A stretch of 64,000 bases of DNA from Spirochaetes bacterium ADurb.Bin218 (lineage in GTDB: Bacteria > Spirochaetota > UBA4802 > UBA5550). This document shows positions 52,759-60,030 of the stretch, one piece after another. The stretch lies in the NCBI GenBank assembly GCA_002069965.1, contig MWCI01000007.1, positions 873 through 64,872 on the forward strand, written 5' to 3'. How positions within the stretch are numbered: position 1 is the first letter of the stretch; every line of letters starts with the position of its first letter. Position numbers and translations under genes: made by a program. Under the pieces are notes generated by a model. It did not search any database. It was given only the letters and a program-made list of their open reading frames with translations, and had not been told where the DNA came from.

Positions 52759-55512
52759 TTATTGATGAGTTATAAATATAGGAATTAATCCTATTCCATC
52801 ATCTAAATAATCAAGAGCCTTCCCTATTACAGAACCAATCTTATCGAAGGAATCAATAACTCCTTTCATAGCACATCCTGGCGTATCTGAAGCAACAAGG
52901 AGATCCCCTGGCTTTATGGGATTTTGTCTTGCATCAACTCTACAAAGACCCTTGCCTGCAAGAATTACAGGATAAACTTTTTCTTCTTTCCCTGAGTTAT
53001 TAATTACAACAAGAGGATTGCCAGAAACAACACCTATAACTGCTGTAGTGTAACTCTTTGAGGATCTGGAAAGTATGGACTTACCCTTGTCACTTGCAAC
53101 AAGCAGATCTCCAGTAGCAATAAACTCTGCCTCATCAGCCTCAAAAAACTCAACTATATTCCCTGGATATTCTAAGTTTAAAGAAGAAAAAGAAACATTC
53201 CCATGGAATTCACAGGAACCCTTTGCAAAAAGCGCCTTTCCCTCTCCCTTAAGTTCTATAGAAGAATCAAAAGACTTAAGCTCATTTCCATAGCCATCAG
53301 CAATAAGCGCAAAGTCATGCTCGCTGCCAAAAAGGCCTCCTGCACCAAACCTTGATATTCCAAGAACACCTGCACCTCTTTGAAAATCTCCACTGGACTG
53401 ACCTCTAACTCCAACATGAGAGCTATGTCCAACTATACCATAGGTAAGAATATAATCCTTAGATAAAACCCCTGCAATCCCTGTAATACCAACTGAATGA
53501 GACTTATCTGAAATATTATTTGCATATATTATAGATGAATCATGAGAAGGTGCTGTAATATCCTTGAAAATCTCTTCCTTTTTATCTTTTATAACTATAG
53601 TTCCAGAGTGACTGCTGAAATCATGGTTAATCGGTGCATAATCATGACTATGAGGCAAAGGTTCTCTTTTATCACTTAACCTCTCATCATCCCCCTGAAC
53701 TACTTTCCCGTGGGCTTTTTCTCCATTTTTTGCAAGGCGAACAATTCCTGAAGTTTCCTCTGTTGCATCCTTTAAGCGCCTGTCATTTCCCTGAACTACT
53801 ACTCCTTCTCTATCCTCTCCATCCTCCGCAAGCTCCACTATCCCCTTGCTCAAGGTAGTTGCATCCTTTAAGCGCCTGTCATTTCCCTGAACCACTACTC
53901 CTTCTCTGTCCTCTCCATCCTCCGCAAGCTCCACTATTCCCTTGCTCAAGGTCGTTGCATCCTTTAAGCGCCTGTCATTTCCCTGAACCACTACTCCTTC
54001 TCTATCCTCTCCATCCTCCGCAAGCTCCACTATTCCCTTGGATGATATTGTGGCATCTTTAAGCCTTCGATCTGTGGAAAGAACAACTGCTCCTTCAGTA
54101 ACAGCACCATCAGCAGCAAGAAGAACTATTCCCTTTGAATAAACACTTGCATCTTTAAGACGCCTGTCATTGCCCTGAACCACTGTTCCCTGATCTGTTC
54201 CGCCATCTGGCGCCAACTTTGTTATTCCATAGCTTTCAGTGGTAGCCTTCTGAAGCCTTGAGTCATTTCCAGAGACAACTGCATGCTCCTTATATTCTCC
54301 ATCAGGACAAAGCCTCACTATTCCAAAATTAGTCTCTGTGGCATTTTGCAACCTTGAATCATTGGATTGAACAACAGCATTGGGATTTGTTTCTCTGTTA
54401 TAGGCAAGCCTGACAATACCAGGCCTTTGCTCTGTGGCATTTTGCAACCTTGAATCATTGGACTGAACAGCCAGACCTTCTGTAGATTCACCGTCATTTG
54501 CAAATTGGACTATCCCTTTAAAAACAGTTGAGGCCTCCCGTAACCTGCTGTCTGTGGATTGGACAACCTTCCCTGGAGCAACCTCTCCATCCATTGCAAG
54601 CCTAACAATACCAGCATGAAAAACAGAGGCATGGGGAGTAATATCTCCTGCTGTATGAGTATGATAAAAATTAACAGGAGCAGCTGAGATCTCCATGTTT
54701 TTAATTTTTATTCCCTTTTTACCCTGTCTTAAACTTTTACTATAGGCCTCAAGCTTTACAAATCTTGCAGATCTAATTCCAGTGACCCAGCTATAGCTTT
54801 TATTCATCTCTGACTCAAAATTAGTCTCATGAACCAGTGTGAGCCATATCTCATTGTCCACAGATGTCTCTATGGTAAACTTCTCTGGAAATCCATCAGT
54901 GGCAGATGTAAGAACTATTCTGTTAATGGATACAGTTTTACCAAGATCAACAAGGACATATTCAGTATCTCTATCATTTGAGGATTTCACCTCCCAGCAT
55001 TTATCCCCACTTAAAAATAAATTATCTGGCGAGCATCCCTCTTCCCAACCACTGGCCTTGACCTCACTATAACCGGAGATGCCAATTTCAACTCTGCCTA
55101 TCTCTGCAAAGTAAGAGCTACCAGAGACAGCAGGCTCAAGAATGAGCACCTTAAGATAACGCATAAGTGTAAGGGGAATGTCAATATCATAGCTGTTTGC
55201 TGAAAGAGAAGTATCCCTCTCTGAATAGAGAACACTCCAGGCAGATGTATCATTGCTGTATTCAAGCCTGAATGATATTGGGAAGGTTCCTGGTCCCTTT
55301 GGTGAAGTGCTGAGCCTGATATAATCAACTGGAAGTTCCTCTCCAAGATCAATAATTACATATTCATGAATCGCTGCACTGCGTTTTTTTGTGCTCCAAA
55401 ATCCACTTTCTTTAAGTAAATTTTCTGGAGAGTTTATATCACTCTCACAGCTGGAAAAGCTATGTATTTTTCCTGTATAGTATTTTCTCTGACATATATT
55501 TATAAATTCCAT
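52759..55512 (-). CDS. Large repeat protein: two F5/8 type C (discoidin)-like domains, ten 32-aa tail-fibre-like repeats, Gly/His-rich C-terminal domain
   Basis: Residues ~1-280 show two discoidin-like units (..YVIIDLGEELPVDYIRL.. and ..YVLVDLGKTVSINRIVL..). Residues 295-614 are ten A(T/S)xxxxGIVxLAxDGExxxGxVVQxNDxRLxD repeats. The C-terminus has duplicated GDLLVASD motifs. There is no signal peptide. Confidence 0.8.
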   Translation of the reverse strand: MEFINICQRKYYTGKIHSFSSCESDINSPENLLKESGFWSTKKRSAAIHEYVIIDLGEELPVDYIRLSTSPKGPGTFPISFRLEYSNDTSAWSVLYSERDTSLSANSYDIDIPLTLMRYLKVLILEPAVSGSSYFAEIGRVEIGISGYSEVKASGWEEGCSPDNLFLSGDKCWEVKSSNDRDTEYVLVDLGKTVSINRIVLTSATDGFPEKFTIETSVDNEIWLTLVHETNFESEMNKSYSWVTGIRSARFVKLEAYSKSLRQGKKGIKIKNMEISAAPVNFYHTHTAGDITPHASVFHAGIVRLAMDGEVAPGKVVQSTDSRLREASTVFKGIVQFANDGESTEGLAVQSNDSRLQNATEQRPGIVRLAYNRETNPNAVVQSNDSRLQNATETNFGIVRLCPDGEYKEHAVVSGNDSRLQKATTESYGITKLAPDGGTDQGTVVQGNDRRLKDASVYSKGIVLLAADGAVTEGAVVLSTDRRLKDATISSKGIVELAEDGEDREGVVVQGNDRRLKDATTLSKGIVELAEDGEDREGVVVQGNDRRLKDATTLSKGIVELAEDGEDREGVVVQGNDRRLKDATEETSGIVRLAKNGEKAHGKVVQGDDERLSDKREPLPHSHDYAPINHDFSSHSGTIVIKDKKEEIFKDITAPSHDSSIIYANNISDKSHSVGITGIAGVLSKDYILTYGIVGHSSHVGVRGQSSGDFQRGAGVLGISRFGAGGLFGSEHDFALIADGYGNELKSFDSSIELKGEGKALFAKGSCEFHGNVSFSSLNLEYPGNIVEFFEADEAEFIATGDLLVASDKGKSILSRSSKSYTTAVIGVVSGNPLVVINNSGKEEKVYPVILAGKGLCRVDARQNPIKPGDLLVASDTPGCAMKGVIDSFDKIGSVIGKALDYLDDGIGLIPIFITHQ
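53671..54630 (-). repeat. Coding tandem repeat array, 10 x 96 bp (32 aa)
   Basis: The period of 96 bp is read directly from the translation of residues 295-614. Confidence 0.9.
53767..54054 (-). repeat. Three near-identical 96-bp copies (repeats 7-9)
   Basis: The units starting at 53765, 53861 and 53957 differ at about 4 positions per 96. Repeats 8 and 9 encode identical peptides. Confidence 0.9.
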
Positions 55513-55571
55513 TACAGCTCCACATTATTTTTTAAAATTTATTTTGATCTGCTACAACTTTTATTCTTATG

Positions 55572-55967
55572 TCAATTATAAAAAGAACGTATAAAGCTTA
55601 TGATTAAAATAACGCACAGCAAAAGCCTTATAACTGCATCAAACCTTATAACTCCCTTAAGCCCACCAGAGGAAAAAGTAATCTCTGCATCACTAAAAGC
55701 GGATCTTATCTTTTCAGGATATATTAAAAGCAGAGGCCCTGTTAAAGCAATAATAAGACCAATATAAAAAATAATTCTACTCATATAGCCTTTATAGATG
55801 CTCAAAACAATTCCGATAAAAATAAGAACAATCCCATGGGAAGGAAAAAATTTACTAAAAACCCATCTCTTCCATAATTCAAAAGATTTAAGAGGGAAAA
55901 AAAACTCCATGAAAAAAATCAATCCCTGAATTAAAGCAAAGGACACAACAATATAGTCAATCATCAA
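55572..55967 (-). CDS. Small integral membrane protein
   Basis: Four hydrophobic helices. It overlaps the upstream hydrolase gene by 11 nt. Confidence 0.55.
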   Translation of the reverse strand: MMIDYIVVSFALIQGLIFFMEFFFPLKSFELWKRWVFSKFFPSHGIVLIFIGIVLSIYKGYMSRIIFYIGLIIALTGPLLLIYPEKIRSAFSDAEITFSSGGLKGVIRFDAVIRLLLCVILIISFIRSFYN

Positions 55968-56709
55968 ATCTCCTCAACCATTCCCTTATGTGATTCATTA
56001 TAAAAGCTATATCCTCCTGCCGTGTAAGGTTGTGATCACCATCATCAATTACATAGCTTGCAACCTCCCCTGCAAGATTATTAAGAAGTATACTGTGATT
56101 TACAAAAGGTACAACAGAGTCAAGCTTTCCATGGAACAAAATTGCAGGCTTTGATATTGACCTTGCAGCCTTAACTAAATCAACGCTTTTTAGCTCTTTA
56201 AAAAATTTATTATTTATTTCAATTCCAGAAAGCTTACTGGATCCTTCAGGATCCAGTTTGTCCACATCATCAGGAGTCATTTCAGGTATAATCTCCAGAA
56301 GATTAACTGGAGTGGCTATGAGAATAAGGCTTTCAAAGTCATCAAACTCTGAGGCAACATAAAGGGATACAGCAGCGCCCATACTTGATCCCATGAGATG
56401 AAGCCTTTTTATCCCATGTTTTTTGAATTCATCAATTGCCGCCCTAAGATCAGCAACCTCCTGCATAAAGGATATCTCTTTTATATTGCTCTGAGACTCC
56501 CCTGCATAAGAAAAATCAAAGGTCATAAGATGATAACCACAGGAAACAATATCCTCTGTCATTCCAGTAATCTTATAGCCATCCTTTGTTGAAAAAAGGC
56601 CATGACTAAAAATCACACCTTTGTCTGATGGAATTTCAGGGGAGCAGATCCTTGAACTTAAAGGAATCCCCTTTTTATTCAAAAATGAAAAATCTTTTCT
56701 TTTCATCAC
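55957..56709 (-). CDS. Alpha/beta hydrolase
   Basis: IFSHGLFS and the nucleophile elbow HLMGSSMGAAV are present, with later Asp (GKLDSVVP) and His (DGDHNL). Confidence 0.8.
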   Translation of the reverse strand: MMKRKDFSFLNKKGIPLSSRICSPEIPSDKGVIFSHGLFSTKDGYKITGMTEDIVSCGYHLMTFDFSYAGESQSNIKEISFMQEVADLRAAIDEFKKHGIKRLHLMGSSMGAAVSLYVASEFDDFESLILIATPVNLLEIIPEMTPDDVDKLDPEGSSKLSGIEINNKFFKELKSVDLVKAARSISKPAILFHGKLDSVVPFVNHSILLNNLAGEVASYVIDDGDHNLTRQEDIAFIMNHIREWLRRFDD

Positions 56710-57176
56710 TTTCCCTTTTTCTCAAGTTTTATCAGTGGTTCAAAATATCCCTCAGAGGTATTGCCATCAATATATATTTGAAGAGGAATCAGTTCCATAT
56801 AGCTTTTGTTATGTTCTTTAATTACCTTGCAATTAAACAAAAAGTAAGAGGATTTTGCCTTTTTATAAGCACCATGAGTGTTTAGATTTTTGACCTTTTC
56901 CTCTCTTTTCATCTCAGATATATTTATCCTGAGAATTCCCTTATCCTCAAAGGTATATATGCCTCTAAAAATCACAGAGGCACTATTTAGATATAAGATA
57001 ACCTGAGCCTTATAGTTCTTACCAAAGGTAAAGGAATAGCCGTAATCATTTTCATAGTGCAAGTCCCAGTTTCCAGAAACATTCGTAAAATCTCCAGGCT
57101 GAGACTCTTGAGCAAAGGAAAAGCAATTAAGTAAAAAGACAAATATAAAAATTTCCAAAAAAGTAAGCTTTTTCAT
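56706..57176 (-). CDS. Secreted or lipoprotein of unknown function
   Basis: The signal peptide is FIFVFLLNCFSFA/QE. Its stop overlaps the hydrolase start by 4 nt. Confidence 0.55.
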   Translation of the reverse strand: MKKLTFLEIFIFVFLLNCFSFAQESQPGDFTNVSGNWDLHYENDYGYSFTFGKNYKAQVILYLNSASVIFRGIYTFEDKGILRINISEMKREEKVKNLNTHGAYKKAKSSYFLFNCKVIKEHNKSYMELIPLQIYIDGNTSEGYFEPLIKLEKKGK

Positions 57177-57256: not shown

Positions 57257-57284
57257 TTGACAAAAGTTAATGCTCTTTTAAATC
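57257..57284 (+). promoter_or_regulatory. Sigma-70-type promoter of ssrA
   Basis: TTGACA, 16 nt, TAAATC, about 12 nt before the tmRNA 5' end. The architecture matches the tRNA-Ser promoter. Confidence 0.55.
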
Positions 57285-57295
57285 AAAGAAAACCA

Positions 57296-57644
57296 GGGGA
57301 CGATCTGGTTTCGACTGCAACAGTAGTTCTGTAGTTGCATGCCGAGTGCGCTGTCATCTCGTAAATAATGGCAGATTAAACATAAGTGCAAACGAAAACT
57401 ACGCTTTAGCAGCATAAAACCTGCTATGTCTTTCTGCATATTGCTCCTCTGGGTAGCAGAAAGGCATGAGCTACAGAGGATAGCCTGATACTTTGCCCCT
57501 AAGTTGAAGGCGAAAATCTAAAGGGATCGGCTTTTGAAACAGTGCCACATTCTGGTTCAAAGGCTTAAATGAAAAAGTGTGGATAAGCATGTAGACGCTG
57601 CAGGAGTATTTTGCAGGACGCGGGTTCGACTCCCGCCGTCTCCA
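57296..57644 (+). ncRNA. ssrA: tmRNA (SsrA)
   Basis: The 5' end GGGGACGATCTGGTTTCGAC pairs with the 3' end CGTCTCCA, and the T-arm is GCGGGTTCGACTCCCGC. The tag reading frame GCA AAC GAA AAC TAC GCT TTA GCA GCA TAA at 57388-57417 encodes ANENYALAA. Confidence 0.95.
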
Positions 57645-57649
57645 CAGAA

Positions 57650-58438
57650 CTATTTTATGAGAGCAAGAATCTTCCTTCCATATTCAGAAAGCATCACCTT
57701 AGAAATAGTGAGGGAGCTTTCATAATCAACAATACCAAAATTGTTCATCCAGTTAATGAGATAAAACTCAACAAAGGAAATTGCAAAGGCATCATCTCTC
57801 TCTGCAATCTCTGTCATTTCAAAAAAATCACGGATAAAATCCCCAATATCTACAGGAATAAAAAACTCACCAAGAAAGTCTATAAAGATAGAACGTGTAG
57901 AAAAAAGCCTCTCTGCCAGTTCAGGGGATGATGGAAAGATATTTTTCCATTCAGTTTCATTCCAGAAGGATTTTAATATTTTTATAAAAAGCTCTTCTCT
58001 TGAAAGAGAACAGGATATTGTAGCTATTCTTTTATTATTCTGAACAATTCCTGCACTTCTGAGTATGTGCATCATCTGCTTTAGATAAATAACCACAAGC
58101 TCTTCATCATTTTCATGAAAAAGATGAAGAATCTCCCTTGCAAGAGAAATATAAAAGTCCTCAGTAAAGGAATTATCTGCCTTTATCTTAATGTTACCAG
58201 AGGTAATCTTTTCTATTATTGCCTGAGCGAGAATAAGGGCATAACAATTCTTTATTTTCATCTCATTGTTTTCTATATAGCCATCCTGTAGGGACATATA
58301 AAATTTTGTTACAGTGGAATAGCTTGATAATATATCTAAATTACTCCCCTGTGGCTCTATTAACAAAAATTTTCGGAAAAAAAATAAATCCTCTTGTTTT
58401 TTATTTACTATAACTTTATCTAACTTTCGTGATCTCAT
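57650..58438 (-). CDS. Hypothetical protein, no recognisable motif
   Basis: A 262-aa ORF with coding-like composition. Its TAG stop lies 5 nt from the tmRNA 3' end. Confidence 0.55.
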   Translation of the reverse strand: MRSRKLDKVIVNKKQEDLFFFRKFLLIEPQGSNLDILSSYSTVTKFYMSLQDGYIENNEMKIKNCYALILAQAIIEKITSGNIKIKADNSFTEDFYISLAREILHLFHENDEELVVIYLKQMMHILRSAGIVQNNKRIATISCSLSREELFIKILKSFWNETEWKNIFPSSPELAERLFSTRSIFIDFLGEFFIPVDIGDFIRDFFEMTEIAERDDAFAISFVEFYLINWMNNFGIVDYESSLTISKVMLSEYGRKILALIK

Positions 58439-58518
58439 TATTACTTCATCTAATTTTTTTGCTCTGAGTCTACCGCATTAATAAAAAATCAAAAAAGGCA
58501 AGAAATAACAGACATCTC

Positions 58519-58547
58519 TATTTATGATAGAAATTAATTTAAGTCAA
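58519..58547 (-). promoter_or_regulatory. Sigma-70 promoter candidate for the 262-aa gene
   Basis: On the minus strand: TTGACT, 17 nt, TAAATA. Confidence 0.5.
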
Positions 58548-58599
58548 ATAATTTTTCTATACAAATATTTTTTTTGCAAAATAATATCAATGGTAATTC

Positions 58600-58760
58600 T
58601 TAATATTTATCTGGAATAAAATGCTCCAATATCCCCGCCATATTCGGCGCTTAGGATATTGAAAATAGTATTTATTACACTAAAAGATATCCCCGAGAAT
58701 TAATACTGAAACAGCATAATCATTACAATCACTTAAATCAATAGACGATGCCCCATCTAT
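58600..58760 (+). repeat. Intergenic element copy B (degenerate hairpin plus conserved blocks)
   Basis: Hairpin CAATATCC-CGCC..GGCG-GGATATTG at 58627-58661, then TTACACTAAAA, then AATTAATACTGA. The order and spacing match copy C. Confidence 0.7.
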
Positions 58761-58766
58761 ACTCTA

Positions 58767-59408
58767 TTAAATTAAGCTAAGGGCTCTCTCCTGTGACATA
58801 TTCCCTTGAGCTGAAATTGCTTCATAACTACTTTTTGCAATCATAGAAGCTGTGTTTCTATTGAGATTTTCAAAATCCTGAGCAGAGCCCGAAAGCCTTA
58901 TACCTGGAAAGGATAGTAAAGCCCTTTTTATTGTGCTATCAATTTTCTCAGCTTGAGACTCAAAGGTTTTAGTAAAGGAATTAAAGACCTCCGGGGATAT
59001 CTTTTCCCCTGAACTCATATCATCATAGGCTCTCATAAGTTCACCAGCTTCTCTGGTAAAGGAACCGCCAGAGACTCCTACAATTGGGGTAAAGATATTC
59101 TCTCCATAATTAGAGATAACGCTTTTAAATCCCGCAATATCTCCACCAACAAGATCAAATTCCACCTTGCCACCAGTCATAGTCTCAAAAGCCATACTTC
59201 TAAGCCTTGCTGAAATATCAATTGCCTTTTGAACTATCTGTCTTGATGTTTGAGCCATTGCCAGAGCCTCTGCTATTGCTCTGTCTCTTTGAACCTTTAA
59301 GCTTAAAGCTCTTTCTGTTGCAATATCTGAGGATACCTTTGCAGAAGATCTTTCAGTTGCATTACCACTTTTGAATGCAACAGTTGTAACATCCATTGTT
59401 ATTTTCAT
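58767..59408 (-). CDS. Hypothetical 213-aa protein with weak flagellin-terminus-like motifs
   Basis: GGGAGGGGG Shine-Dalgarno is present. The N-terminal region has MAQTSRQIVQKAIDISARLRSMA, and the C-terminal end has AISAQGNMSQERALSLI. See findings. Confidence 0.7.
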   Translation of the reverse strand: MKITMDVTTVAFKSGNATERSSAKVSSDIATERALSLKVQRDRAIAEALAMAQTSRQIVQKAIDISARLRSMAFETMTGGKVEFDLVGGDIAGFKSVISNYGENIFTPIVGVSGGSFTREAGELMRAYDDMSSGEKISPEVFNSFTKTFESQAEKIDSTIKRALLSFPGIRLSGSAQDFENLNRNTASMIAKSSYEAISAQGNMSQERALSLI

Positions 59409-59455
59409 AATACCCCCTCCCTGGTATTATTTTTGCTACTCTTATATAAAAACTT

Positions 59456-59770
59456 TTACGAAAGCAATTTCTCCAGCTTTTTAGCAGTTTCCTCATCAAC
59501 ATCTATAAATTCAATGCCCATGCCAGCTCTCTTTTCTGGAGATTCATCATTTCTTACCCATCGGACTATGCCCTTTACCTCAACCTCACCATCATCAGGG
59601 AGCATTACCGTCAGCTTAACACTTGCTCCATCACCAAGAGGTTCAGGTGTTGATATAAAAATGCCACCGCGACTTACATCAACTGCTGTGCTGCGAGAAA
59701 CAAAATCATCCCCTCTGACTTCAGATTTTATTTTTTTTGTTACCCTTGTGCTCTTTCTCTTTTCTGACAT
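59456..59770 (-). CDS. Stand-alone PilZ domain protein (c-di-GMP receptor)
   Basis: RKSTR is the RxxxR motif and DVSRGG is the D/NxSxxG motif. GGAGGGGGAAG Shine-Dalgarno is present. Confidence 0.85.
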   Translation of the reverse strand: MSEKRKSTRVTKKIKSEVRGDDFVSRSTAVDVSRGGIFISTPEPLGDGASVKLTVMLPDDGEVEVKGIVRWVRNDESPEKRAGMGIEFIDVDEETAKKLEKLLS

Positions 59771-59840
59771 CTTCCCCCTCCAGTAAAATCTCCACCACTT
59801 TTAACAATACAATAAAATGCAAAAAATTACAACTTTTTTT

Positions 59841-60030
59841 CAGTATTTATTCCTTAAGTTCTTGTAAAATAAAAATACTCTATTATCCCAGCCGCCTTCG
59901 GCGGCTGGGATAATATTTTCTTAATTTTACACTAAAAACTATATTTAGGAATAATTACTGACTTTTTTTTGCAAAGTGAAAGCTATTATTTAAATTGAAG
60001 CATTTTTATTCTTACCGCATGCCCATCTGC
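59841..60030 (+). repeat. Intergenic element copy C (GC-rich hairpin plus conserved blocks)
   Basis: A perfect ~14-bp hairpin TTATCCCAGCCGC(C)-TTC-(G)GCGGCTGGGATAA lies at 59882-59914, followed by TTACACTAAAA and AATAATTACTGA. The similarity to copy B continues into the 3' end of the 55-aa ORF. Confidence 0.7.

Follow-up and report, generated by a model that had tools for sequence, protein, structure and literature searches.

Organization of the locus

The stretch of DNA that we analyzed (hereafter the window) covers 64,000 nucleotides (nt) of Spirochaetes bacterium ADurb.Bin218 (assembly GCA_002069965.1, contig MWCI01000007.1, positions 873 to 64,872) and carries, at 58767-59770, the two neighboring genes that are the subject of this work. 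The upstream gene encodes a PilZ-domain protein of 104 amino acids (aa), and the downstream gene encodes a 213-aa protein that we call X. A first-pass annotation, made from the sequence alone, had described these two open reading frames (ORFs) as a receptor for cyclic di-GMP (c-di-GMP) apparently co-transcribed with a mini-flagellin-like protein. The two genes were confirmed, and both are encoded on the minus strand. The features on which the argument depends are the following.

59456-59770, minus strand: PilZ gene, 104 aa; stand-alone, single-domain protein with RxxxR (RKSTR) and D.S..G (DVSRGG) motifs
58767-59408, minus strand: gene X, 213 aa; very probably a divergent member of the flagellin superfamily, retaining the D1 helices and, at the C-terminus, a D0-like helix
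59428-59455, minus strand: rearrangement junction, from the PilZ stop codon to the start of similarity with the X leaders of relatives; the AATTGACA promoter is missing
59407-59430, minus strand: predicted X leader hairpin, AUAAUACC-AGGGAGGG-GGUAUUAU, the loop containing the Shine-Dalgarno, the start codon lying at the base of the stem
58616-58664, minus strand: terminator-like hairpin with a U-rich tail, predicted by folding, ~100 nt past the X stop codon
59839-59970, no strand assigned: one copy of a ~125-bp dispersed repeat containing a palindrome (59881-59915); bounds PilZ upstream

The first-pass description of the intergenic region was borne out: the gap is 47 nt long (59409-59455), holds a GGGAGGGGG ribosome-binding site and has no terminator. 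GGGAGGGGG is the reverse complement of 59413-59421, and 4 nt separate its end from the ATG of X. A consensus scan of the minus strand of the gap reported neither a terminator-like site nor a sigma-70-like promoter. The PilZ gene is fully overlapped by a 117-aa ORF on the opposite strand (59433-59786, plus strand), which is almost certainly spurious; because this ORF is longer than PilZ, it displaces PilZ in naive longest-ORF gene calling.

X defines a family confined to one order of spirochaetes

A profile made from 11 relatives of X retrieved 187 cluster representatives among 1.84 billion proteins, nearly all of them 200-260 aa long. We aligned 74 of the 150 listed representatives with the window protein, omitting fragments and N-terminally extended proteins, which gave an alignment of 75 sequences. 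The public records in which X occurs are metagenome-assembled genomes of uncultured Spirochaetota, Spirochaetia or Leptospirales, and wherever a source gives the protein a name, that name is "hypothetical." A word-index search with the single sequence found only X itself, and its profile version found six proteins, again all "hypothetical." When the 75-sequence profile was run across the phylum, full-length matches (E below 1e-17) occurred only in the window's order, namely in families f1 (the window's own), f2, f3, f5 and f7 and in genus g33 of family f6; genus g25 of f6 gave weak matches of about 203-219 aa. The order was covered by 45 genomes in this phylum-wide search and by 41 genomes for the positions of X, PilZ and gene Y (see below). 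The X family is a real, conserved gene family confined to one order of uncultured spirochaetes. The portions consulted of the literature on spirochaete PilZ proteins, c-di-GMP and flagellin-like proteins of periplasmic flagella describe no such family or pairing.

X is very probably a diverged member of the flagellin superfamily

The resemblance of X to flagellin finds its strongest support in comparisons between profiles. When the 75 X sequences were compared with 19 spirochaete FlaB sequences (five from the window's genome and 14 fetched frames), hhalign returned a probability of 88.4% (P 2.8e-6) over 195 collinear columns, X 35-229 corresponding to flagellin 51-288 of 290. Controls run with the family of Y, with the family of a second conserved neighbor, Z, and with the reversed flagellin alignment gave 0.4%, 0.2% and 0.1%, respectively. 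With the five FlaB proteins of the window's genome alone, the probability was 46.5% (E 2e-4).

A search of PDB sequences gave a similar picture. The top match of the 75-sequence profile in hmmsearch was the Leptospira biflexa flagellin 9lrz_A (E 6.4e-5), aligned over two collinear stretches (X 19-82 with 19-97 and X 153-227 with 197-280), and at least 12 more flagellin entries stood below it (10lk, 6pwb, 10lm, 10ll, 5wjw, 5maw, 6gow and others), all of them C-terminally anchored. The two parts of X that the first-pass annotation had singled out as flagellin-like are the ones that these profile methods align to flagellin. The signal in the PDB search emerged only with the 75-sequence profile; the 11-sequence profile returned helical noise (haemagglutinin HA2, designed bundles) and no flagellin. 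In the phylum-wide search, the C-terminal ~75 residues of the X profile also matched, repeatedly and outside the window's order, open frames of 281-376 aa at a per-genome E of about 1e-4, including frames in 45 of the 45 genomes of family f15. All 14 such frames that were fetched, from several families, encode FlaB-type flagellins starting with MIINHN or MVINHN.

Structural modeling is also consistent with a flagellin ancestry. The AlphaFold2 (AF2) model of X built from the 75 sequences is all-helical, with a predicted local distance difference test score (pLDDT) of 79.8. A first model, built from 11 sequences, had a pLDDT of 65.8, and flagellins were frequent among its non-significant Foldseek rows. 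When the X model was compared with 48,161 chains using VIA-align, the FlgL structures 5ziy_B, 5ziz_A and 7c7z_B occupied ranks 1-3 (Z 10.3, 10.1 and 10.0; root mean square deviation 2.9-3.0; 132-141 residues aligned), and 17 of the top 50 entries were flagellin, FlgL or FliD. Among the 30 nearest clusters of X in the ESM Atlas, 12 belong to sets carrying Flagellin_N. Sequence and structure alignments agree in register: in both, X ~21-30 corresponds to flagellin ~44-52.

Several results weigh against this relationship and would fit an alternative in which X is an unrelated, lineage-specific helical-bundle protein that resembles flagellin through convergent helical composition and a chance C-terminal motif. 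Direct searches of Pfam and NCBIfam with window X gave no flagellin model at E ≤ 1, and Flagellin_N (PF00669) and Flagellin_C (PF00700) are absent among the 25 families shown for the 75 X members, a list that leaves aside 48 single-member families. Neither model had a significant Foldseek match (best E 0.22 and 0.33), and with the model of higher pLDDT the four-helix bundles of NarQ and Tar ranked above flagellins. Sensor four-helix and designed bundles equal flagellins in two of the searches: in VIA-align, where Z values below ~13 are common among helical bundles, generic bundles reach the same level as FlgL (Z 9-10); in the PDB profile search, designed coiled coils appear among the flagellins with comparable E-values, one of them at 8.7e-5, which indicates that the E-values of this search are inflated by helical composition. 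Four observations argue against the alternative. The hhalign probability rises from 46% to 88% with a more diverse flagellin profile, whereas the three controls stay at or below 0.4%; the alignments run collinearly over the full length, with anchors in both flagellin-like blocks; sequence and structure comparisons give one residue offset; and the X profile cross-matches FlaB-type open frames in more than 80 genomes. We therefore consider an unrelated helical bundle improbable, and X very probably a diverged flagellin-superfamily protein that keeps D1 and a C-terminal D0-like helix and lacks the N-terminal D0 helix (ND0). The resemblance proposed in the first-pass annotation thus failed the direct check against Pfam Flagellin_N and Flagellin_C but is supported, as remote homology, by profile-profile and profile-versus-PDB searches and, less clearly, by structure searches. 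Two matches of X, to the NCBIfam family BspR anti-sigma (E 0.059) and to DUF2533 (E 0.088), were treated as noise; noise aside, X matched no family of Pfam or NCBIfam at E ≤ 1.

As predicted from the alignments, X retains a long ND1 helix with an R..R..A core, a second D1 helix, the C-terminal D1 helices and an "AQGN...L" D0-like helix. The ND0 helix and the LSSG.RIN.A.DDA motif were not found in X, the hhalign alignments beginning at flagellin column 51-52. X indeed lacks the usual flagellin start and is shortened, as had been noted from its sequence, the N-terminal ~50 residues of flagellin being unaligned. Its own N-terminus has a conserved M-K/R-I-T/N start followed by a low-confidence non-helical stretch; residues 1-24 are non-helical in both AF2 models, with a pLDDT of about 34-53. 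The hexapeptide ERALSL, from which the first-pass annotation had read a symmetry of the protein, does occur twice in window X (residues 32-37 and 207-212), but neither copy is conserved in relatives, and the symmetry is therefore a peculiarity of one sequence.

Two axial proteins serve as points of comparison. FlaB (Flagellin_N/Flagellin_C; PDB 9lrz) is the best sequence-profile match of X and has in common with it the ND1 helix block, the D1 C-terminal helices and a "LAQAN...LL"-type C-terminal helix. However, FlaB is 281-376 aa long in the frames seen and has a MIINHN...LSSG.RIN.AGDDA start that is not in X, and the five canonical FlaB genes of the window's genome lie elsewhere. FlgL (HAP3) provides the best structural superpositions of the X model, though with Z values tied with those of generic helical bundles, and the M-K/R-I-T start of X resembles the MNRITNQM start of FlgL from the window's genome. 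The latter protein is 420 aa long and, unlike X, passes Flagellin_N (63 bits). The Flagellin_N model matches six other genes of this genome.

The PilZ protein is an ordinary, conserved single-domain protein

The PilZ protein matches Pfam PilZ (PF07238) over residues 3-103 (E 1.8e-17, 64 bits, cut-off 22.5) and also passes TIGR02266 (69.3 bits, cut-off 68.7). Both c-di-GMP-binding motifs named in the first-pass annotation are present, RKSTR at residues 5-9 and DVSRGG at residues 31-36, and both are kept across 11 orthologues, with one S-to-G change in one of them (DLGTGG). Orthologues are single-copy, 44-61% identical, and present in 35 of the 41 genomes of the order. The gene is thus an ordinary, conserved, single-copy, stand-alone gene for a putative c-di-GMP receptor, ligand binding being predicted from the motifs.

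The usual genomic context of this gene differs from that in the window. At 11 orthologue loci, PilZ normally lies between a divergent 194-aa gene and a GDSL-type gene. The 194-aa gene, whose product starts M..IFYLKKKVLFPHCT, is followed by a 150-aa gene. This neighborhood (194-aa gene, 150-aa gene and GDSL-type gene) may be the real functional context of this PilZ protein. PilZ's usual neighbors are missing from the window, and the 194-aa gene is on another contig of the window's genome.

The PilZ-X adjacency is very probably secondary

The pairing of PilZ with a mini-flagellin, which the first-pass annotation had not recognized as a described one, is not conserved. A hidden Markov model of the PilZ orthologues, used at E ≤ 1, found nothing at 32 X loci with 1.5-5 kb flanks, which represent about 25 distinct other genomes, seven loci being represented twice. 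None of the 31 other X-bearing genomes has a PilZ orthologue within 20 kb of X: the distance is 21-28 kb in G002, G009 and G017 and 160 kb in G016, and the two genes are on different contigs elsewhere. The annotation had itself made the pairing depend on conservation in other genomes, so the pairing falls, while the flagellin lead survives.

The adjacency in the window is nevertheless not an assembly artefact. A 5436-nt DNA contig from an independent-looking run (X2) spans 57500-59868, and 14 DNA rows contain 85-89% of the words sampled from the stretch; the PilZ-X junction is real. Upstream, PilZ is bounded by the dispersed repeat, which matches 47 places in the window's genome, about 40 of these being 79-97% identical and spread over many contigs. 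At this repeat, the DNA depth jumps 8- to 40-fold in two metagenome runs. Its palindrome (59881-59915) has a 16-bp stem and resembles a bidirectional terminator, and the consensus scan reported a terminator-like hairpin. The repeat may drive rearrangements in this reduced (3.0 Mb) genome. As to how the pair arose, a simple deletion of the 21-28 kb that separate the two genes in G002, G009 and G017 was rejected: the intervening or PilZ-flanking genes of these genomes match only the X-side block, and both PilZ flanks in the window differ from the usual context.

Could the pair nonetheless be a functional c-di-GMP-controlled module, in which PilZ binds or controls X in a manner analogous to the action of YcgR on the motor? 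The 47-nt spacing, the gap without promoter or terminator, the loss of the ancestral X promoter and the one RNA contig that bridges the pair (see below) would fit such a module, as would the presence of the arrangement in many metagenome runs. The window PilZ shares with YcgR/MotI-type flagellar brakes the PilZ domain, the two c-di-GMP-binding motifs and a flagellated host. In contrast to those brakes, the window PilZ is a bare 104-aa domain: the match fills residues 3-103 of 104, no further domain is present and the YcgR-type N-terminal domain (YcgR/PilZN) is absent. Its orthologues are unlinked to flagellar genes at the 11 loci, have their own conserved neighborhood elsewhere, and are equally conserved in genus g25 of f6, where X is weakly recognizable. 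Together with the lack of adjacency in other genomes and the dispersed repeat at the boundary, this makes a functional module very unlikely. We regard the adjacency as very probably secondary, and the PilZ-X link is most plausibly a rewiring of X transcription in one species, not a receptor-effector pair. It is also a caution, since a tidy two-gene "operon" can be a one-species rearrangement, which conservation checks and promoter archaeology are able to expose.

Loss of the ancestral X promoter and transcription of X

Comparison of leader regions shows what the rearrangement took from X. A AATTGACA element is conserved order-wide ~50-60 nt before the X ATG; in the upstream regions of 17 relatives, TTGACA lies at this distance, and it is absent from the window. 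The CAGGGAGGG Shine-Dalgarno of X is likewise conserved across the order. The window leader resembles those of relatives only from ~19 nt before the ATG, and the PilZ 3' end lies upstream of that point. Since the PilZ 3' end occupies the X upstream region, the ancestral X promoter is gone. No sigma-28-type promoter was found upstream of X, the one loose match, in one relative, overlapping the TTGACA site.

With its promoter removed, X is now most likely transcribed by read-through from PilZ. Consistent with this, run X15 contains a 1065-nt metatranscriptome contig (58651-59692) that takes in X, the gap and 237 nt of PilZ. Other evidence weighs against read-through. In a second RNA run (X17), X is covered, from 58604 to 59414, and PilZ is uncovered, so X may be transcribed from its own start, overlooked by the consensus scan. 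Bridging contigs cannot prove a single transcript, and holes in contig cover, such as that of run X15 over most of Y, the next gene downstream, prove nothing. On balance, the co-transcription suggested in the first-pass annotation is probable, given a gap without promoter or terminator, the missing ancestral promoter and the bridging contig.

The 3' end of the X transcript is likely to be the hairpin at 58616-58664. RNA contigs end near it, at 58651 in run X15 (with adapter) and at 58604 in run X17. The consensus terminator scan did not report this hairpin.

The X leader is itself predicted to fold into a hairpin (-7.7 kcal/mol, z -2.28), and most relatives have the same arrangement. In the window (59407-59430, minus strand) and in the X leaders of relatives, the loop contains AGGGAGGG, and the AUG lies at the stem base. 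The flaB leaders of the window's genome also contain GGA hairpins, such as CUGGC-AAGGA-AGCCAG. Judged by their motif, the X and flaB leader hairpins look like CsrA-type sites.

A putative chaperone gene adjoins X in most families of the order

Outside the window's family, X has a constant neighbor. At nine of nine loci from five other families (a sample of nine of the 11 X loci outside f1), X is followed immediately by a same-strand 134-aa gene, Z, after a gap of about 9-200 nt. Z is strongly conserved, being 51-66% identical to the copy in the window's genome. Compared with Pfam, 45 Z members matched CesT_Tir_1 (35 members, best E 1.9e-5), TY-Chap1 (21), CesT (5) and YbjN (1), and, bar one stray match in one member, only families of type III chaperones were matched.

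Three findings weigh against a chaperone assignment for Z or a general pairing with X. The chaperone-family matches are all below the Pfam cut-offs, the Z protein of the window's genome scoring 20.6 bits against 27; a search of PDB sequences with the Z profile found nothing; and X and Z are unlinked in the window's family, where the Z gene of the window's genome is on another contig. A complex prediction for X and Z scored 0.00, which, the run having been made without controls, is evidence neither way.

A possible role for X in flagellar export or regulation

The window's organism is flagellated, its genome encoding five FlaB proteins, FlgL, FliW, CsrA and FliS. In axial proteins, ND0 and CD0 together form the inner tube, and a flagellin that lacks ND0 would not be expected to form the core of the filament. 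X, which has no ND0, is therefore unlikely to be a normal filament-core subunit. X was not found in two near-complete flagellated genomes, G024 (95% complete) and G212 (94%), which implies that X is dispensable for flagella. This absence favors an accessory export substrate or a regulator.

The explanation that we favor overall, and consider more likely than not, is that X is derived from flagellin and usually paired with Z, PilZ having been placed beside it by rearrangement. The X family would descend from flagellin, with ND0 (~50 residues) replaced by a short start and a disordered linker. X would be an accessory protein exported by the flagellar type III apparatus, or would regulate by way of the surfaces with which flagellin binds its partners. 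X and Z form a two-gene unit in most families of the order, Z being a CesT/YbjN-like, chaperone-type protein and the putative chaperone of X. PilZ normally lies elsewhere; a repeat-flanked rearrangement would have put it 47 nt upstream of X and removed the strong promoter of X, which would now be read through from PilZ. Within this account, the role of X as a non-core flagellar export substrate or regulator with Z as its partner is tentative, export, chaperoning and regulation being suggested by homology and gene neighborhood.

A different role for a flagellin derivative would be structural, X being a component of the periplasmic flagellum that is present in few copies (a subunit that is junction-like, terminal or in contact with the sheath), neither a regulator nor freely exported. 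Its best structural matches are to FlgL, the hook-filament junction protein; its D1 "R..R..A" block aligns with the LQRIRELA region of flagellin; it has a strong consensus promoter and a strong Shine-Dalgarno across the order; and RNA contigs cover it in two metatranscriptome runs. Set against this, no ND0 helix aligns, the gene was not found in the two near-complete flagellated genomes, the window's genome has the canonical 420-aa FlgL, and X never adjoins flagellar genes in the 32 loci inspected. A structural part is thus unlikely, and we retain the accessory substrate or regulator as the preferred role.

Among described proteins, FlaC of Campylobacter jejuni and other Campylobacterales comes closest to X. 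According to two reports, FlaC is a small, flagellin-derived, non-structural protein without D2/D3 that is not needed for motility and is secreted via the flagellar type III apparatus (PMC4863622; PMC5466977). X is of similar size (213-250 aa) and also lacks D2/D3. Like FlaC, it is encoded apart from flagellar genes and is dispensable in some flagellated genomes. However, FlaC retains D0 and D1 and is described as "very closely related" to other flagellins (PMC4863622), whereas X has no ND0, is too diverged for the Pfam flagellin models, would be exported only by analogy, and is paired in most families with a CesT/YbjN-like gene.

Spirochaete periplasmic flagella have few known parts, and the uncultured lineages are unexplored. 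A conserved, apparently highly expressed flagellin derivative without the polymerization-critical ND0 would represent a new type of flagellar accessory or regulatory protein. To our knowledge, the phylum has no injectisome, and the X-Z neighborhood makes it possible to ask directly whether class I-type chaperones act at the flagellar export gate.

In described partner switches, a type III substrate retains a partner protein until its own secretion releases it. The type III chaperone CesT binds CsrA (PMC5864733), and FliW antagonizes CsrA (PMC7829508; PMC4894983). X-Z resembles the flagellin-FliW-CsrA and Tir-CesT-CsrA systems in that a flagellin-like X is encoded beside a CesT-like Z, the X leader has a GGA-containing Shine-Dalgarno in a predicted hairpin loop, and CsrA and FliW genes are present. 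It differs from them in being known from genes alone and in being unlinked in the window's own family. By analogy with these precedents, the leader hairpin points, speculatively, to an export-coupled switch. X-Z as a third switch of this kind is an improbable proposal, in which an ND0-less X decoy would be exported to the periplasm, freeing Z to act on CsrA or another regulator; the X leader, with its GGA-rich Shine-Dalgarno in a hairpin loop, would be a target of that control; and the circuit of the window species would have come newly under the promoter of a c-di-GMP receptor gene. If true, this would be a natural rewiring of flagellar feedback to second-messenger signaling.

Downstream neighbors of X in the window

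In the window, X is followed by gene Y and by the gene for transfer-messenger RNA (tmRNA).

57650-58438, minus strand: gene Y, 262 aa, without a Pfam family; downstream neighbor of X
57296-57647, plus strand: tmRNA (ssrA), tag peptide ANENYALAA; convergent with Y, whose stop codon directly adjoins the tmRNA 3' end

Y is present in 40 of the 41 genomes of the order. It adjoins X in 19 of the 21 X-bearing f1 genomes and in none of the 11 X-bearing genomes of other families, where the two are on different contigs. Its Atlas model resembles clusters with Y4jL_N, SEC-C and pRiA4b ORF-3 domains (TM 0.62-0.67), and Y is a widespread fold without an assigned function.

In f1, X and Y belong to a syntenic block that continues with tmRNA, a lipoprotein, a hydrolase, a membrane protein and a discoidin protein. 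In the window, the part of the block at 52759-57176 (minus strand), syntenic across the family, encodes a 917-aa discoidin/repeat protein, a 131-aa membrane protein, an alpha/beta hydrolase and a small lipoprotein. A small conserved "ORF" at 57278-57439, on the strand opposite to tmRNA, is an artefact of the tmRNA gene, and tmRNA cover is very high in both RNA runs.

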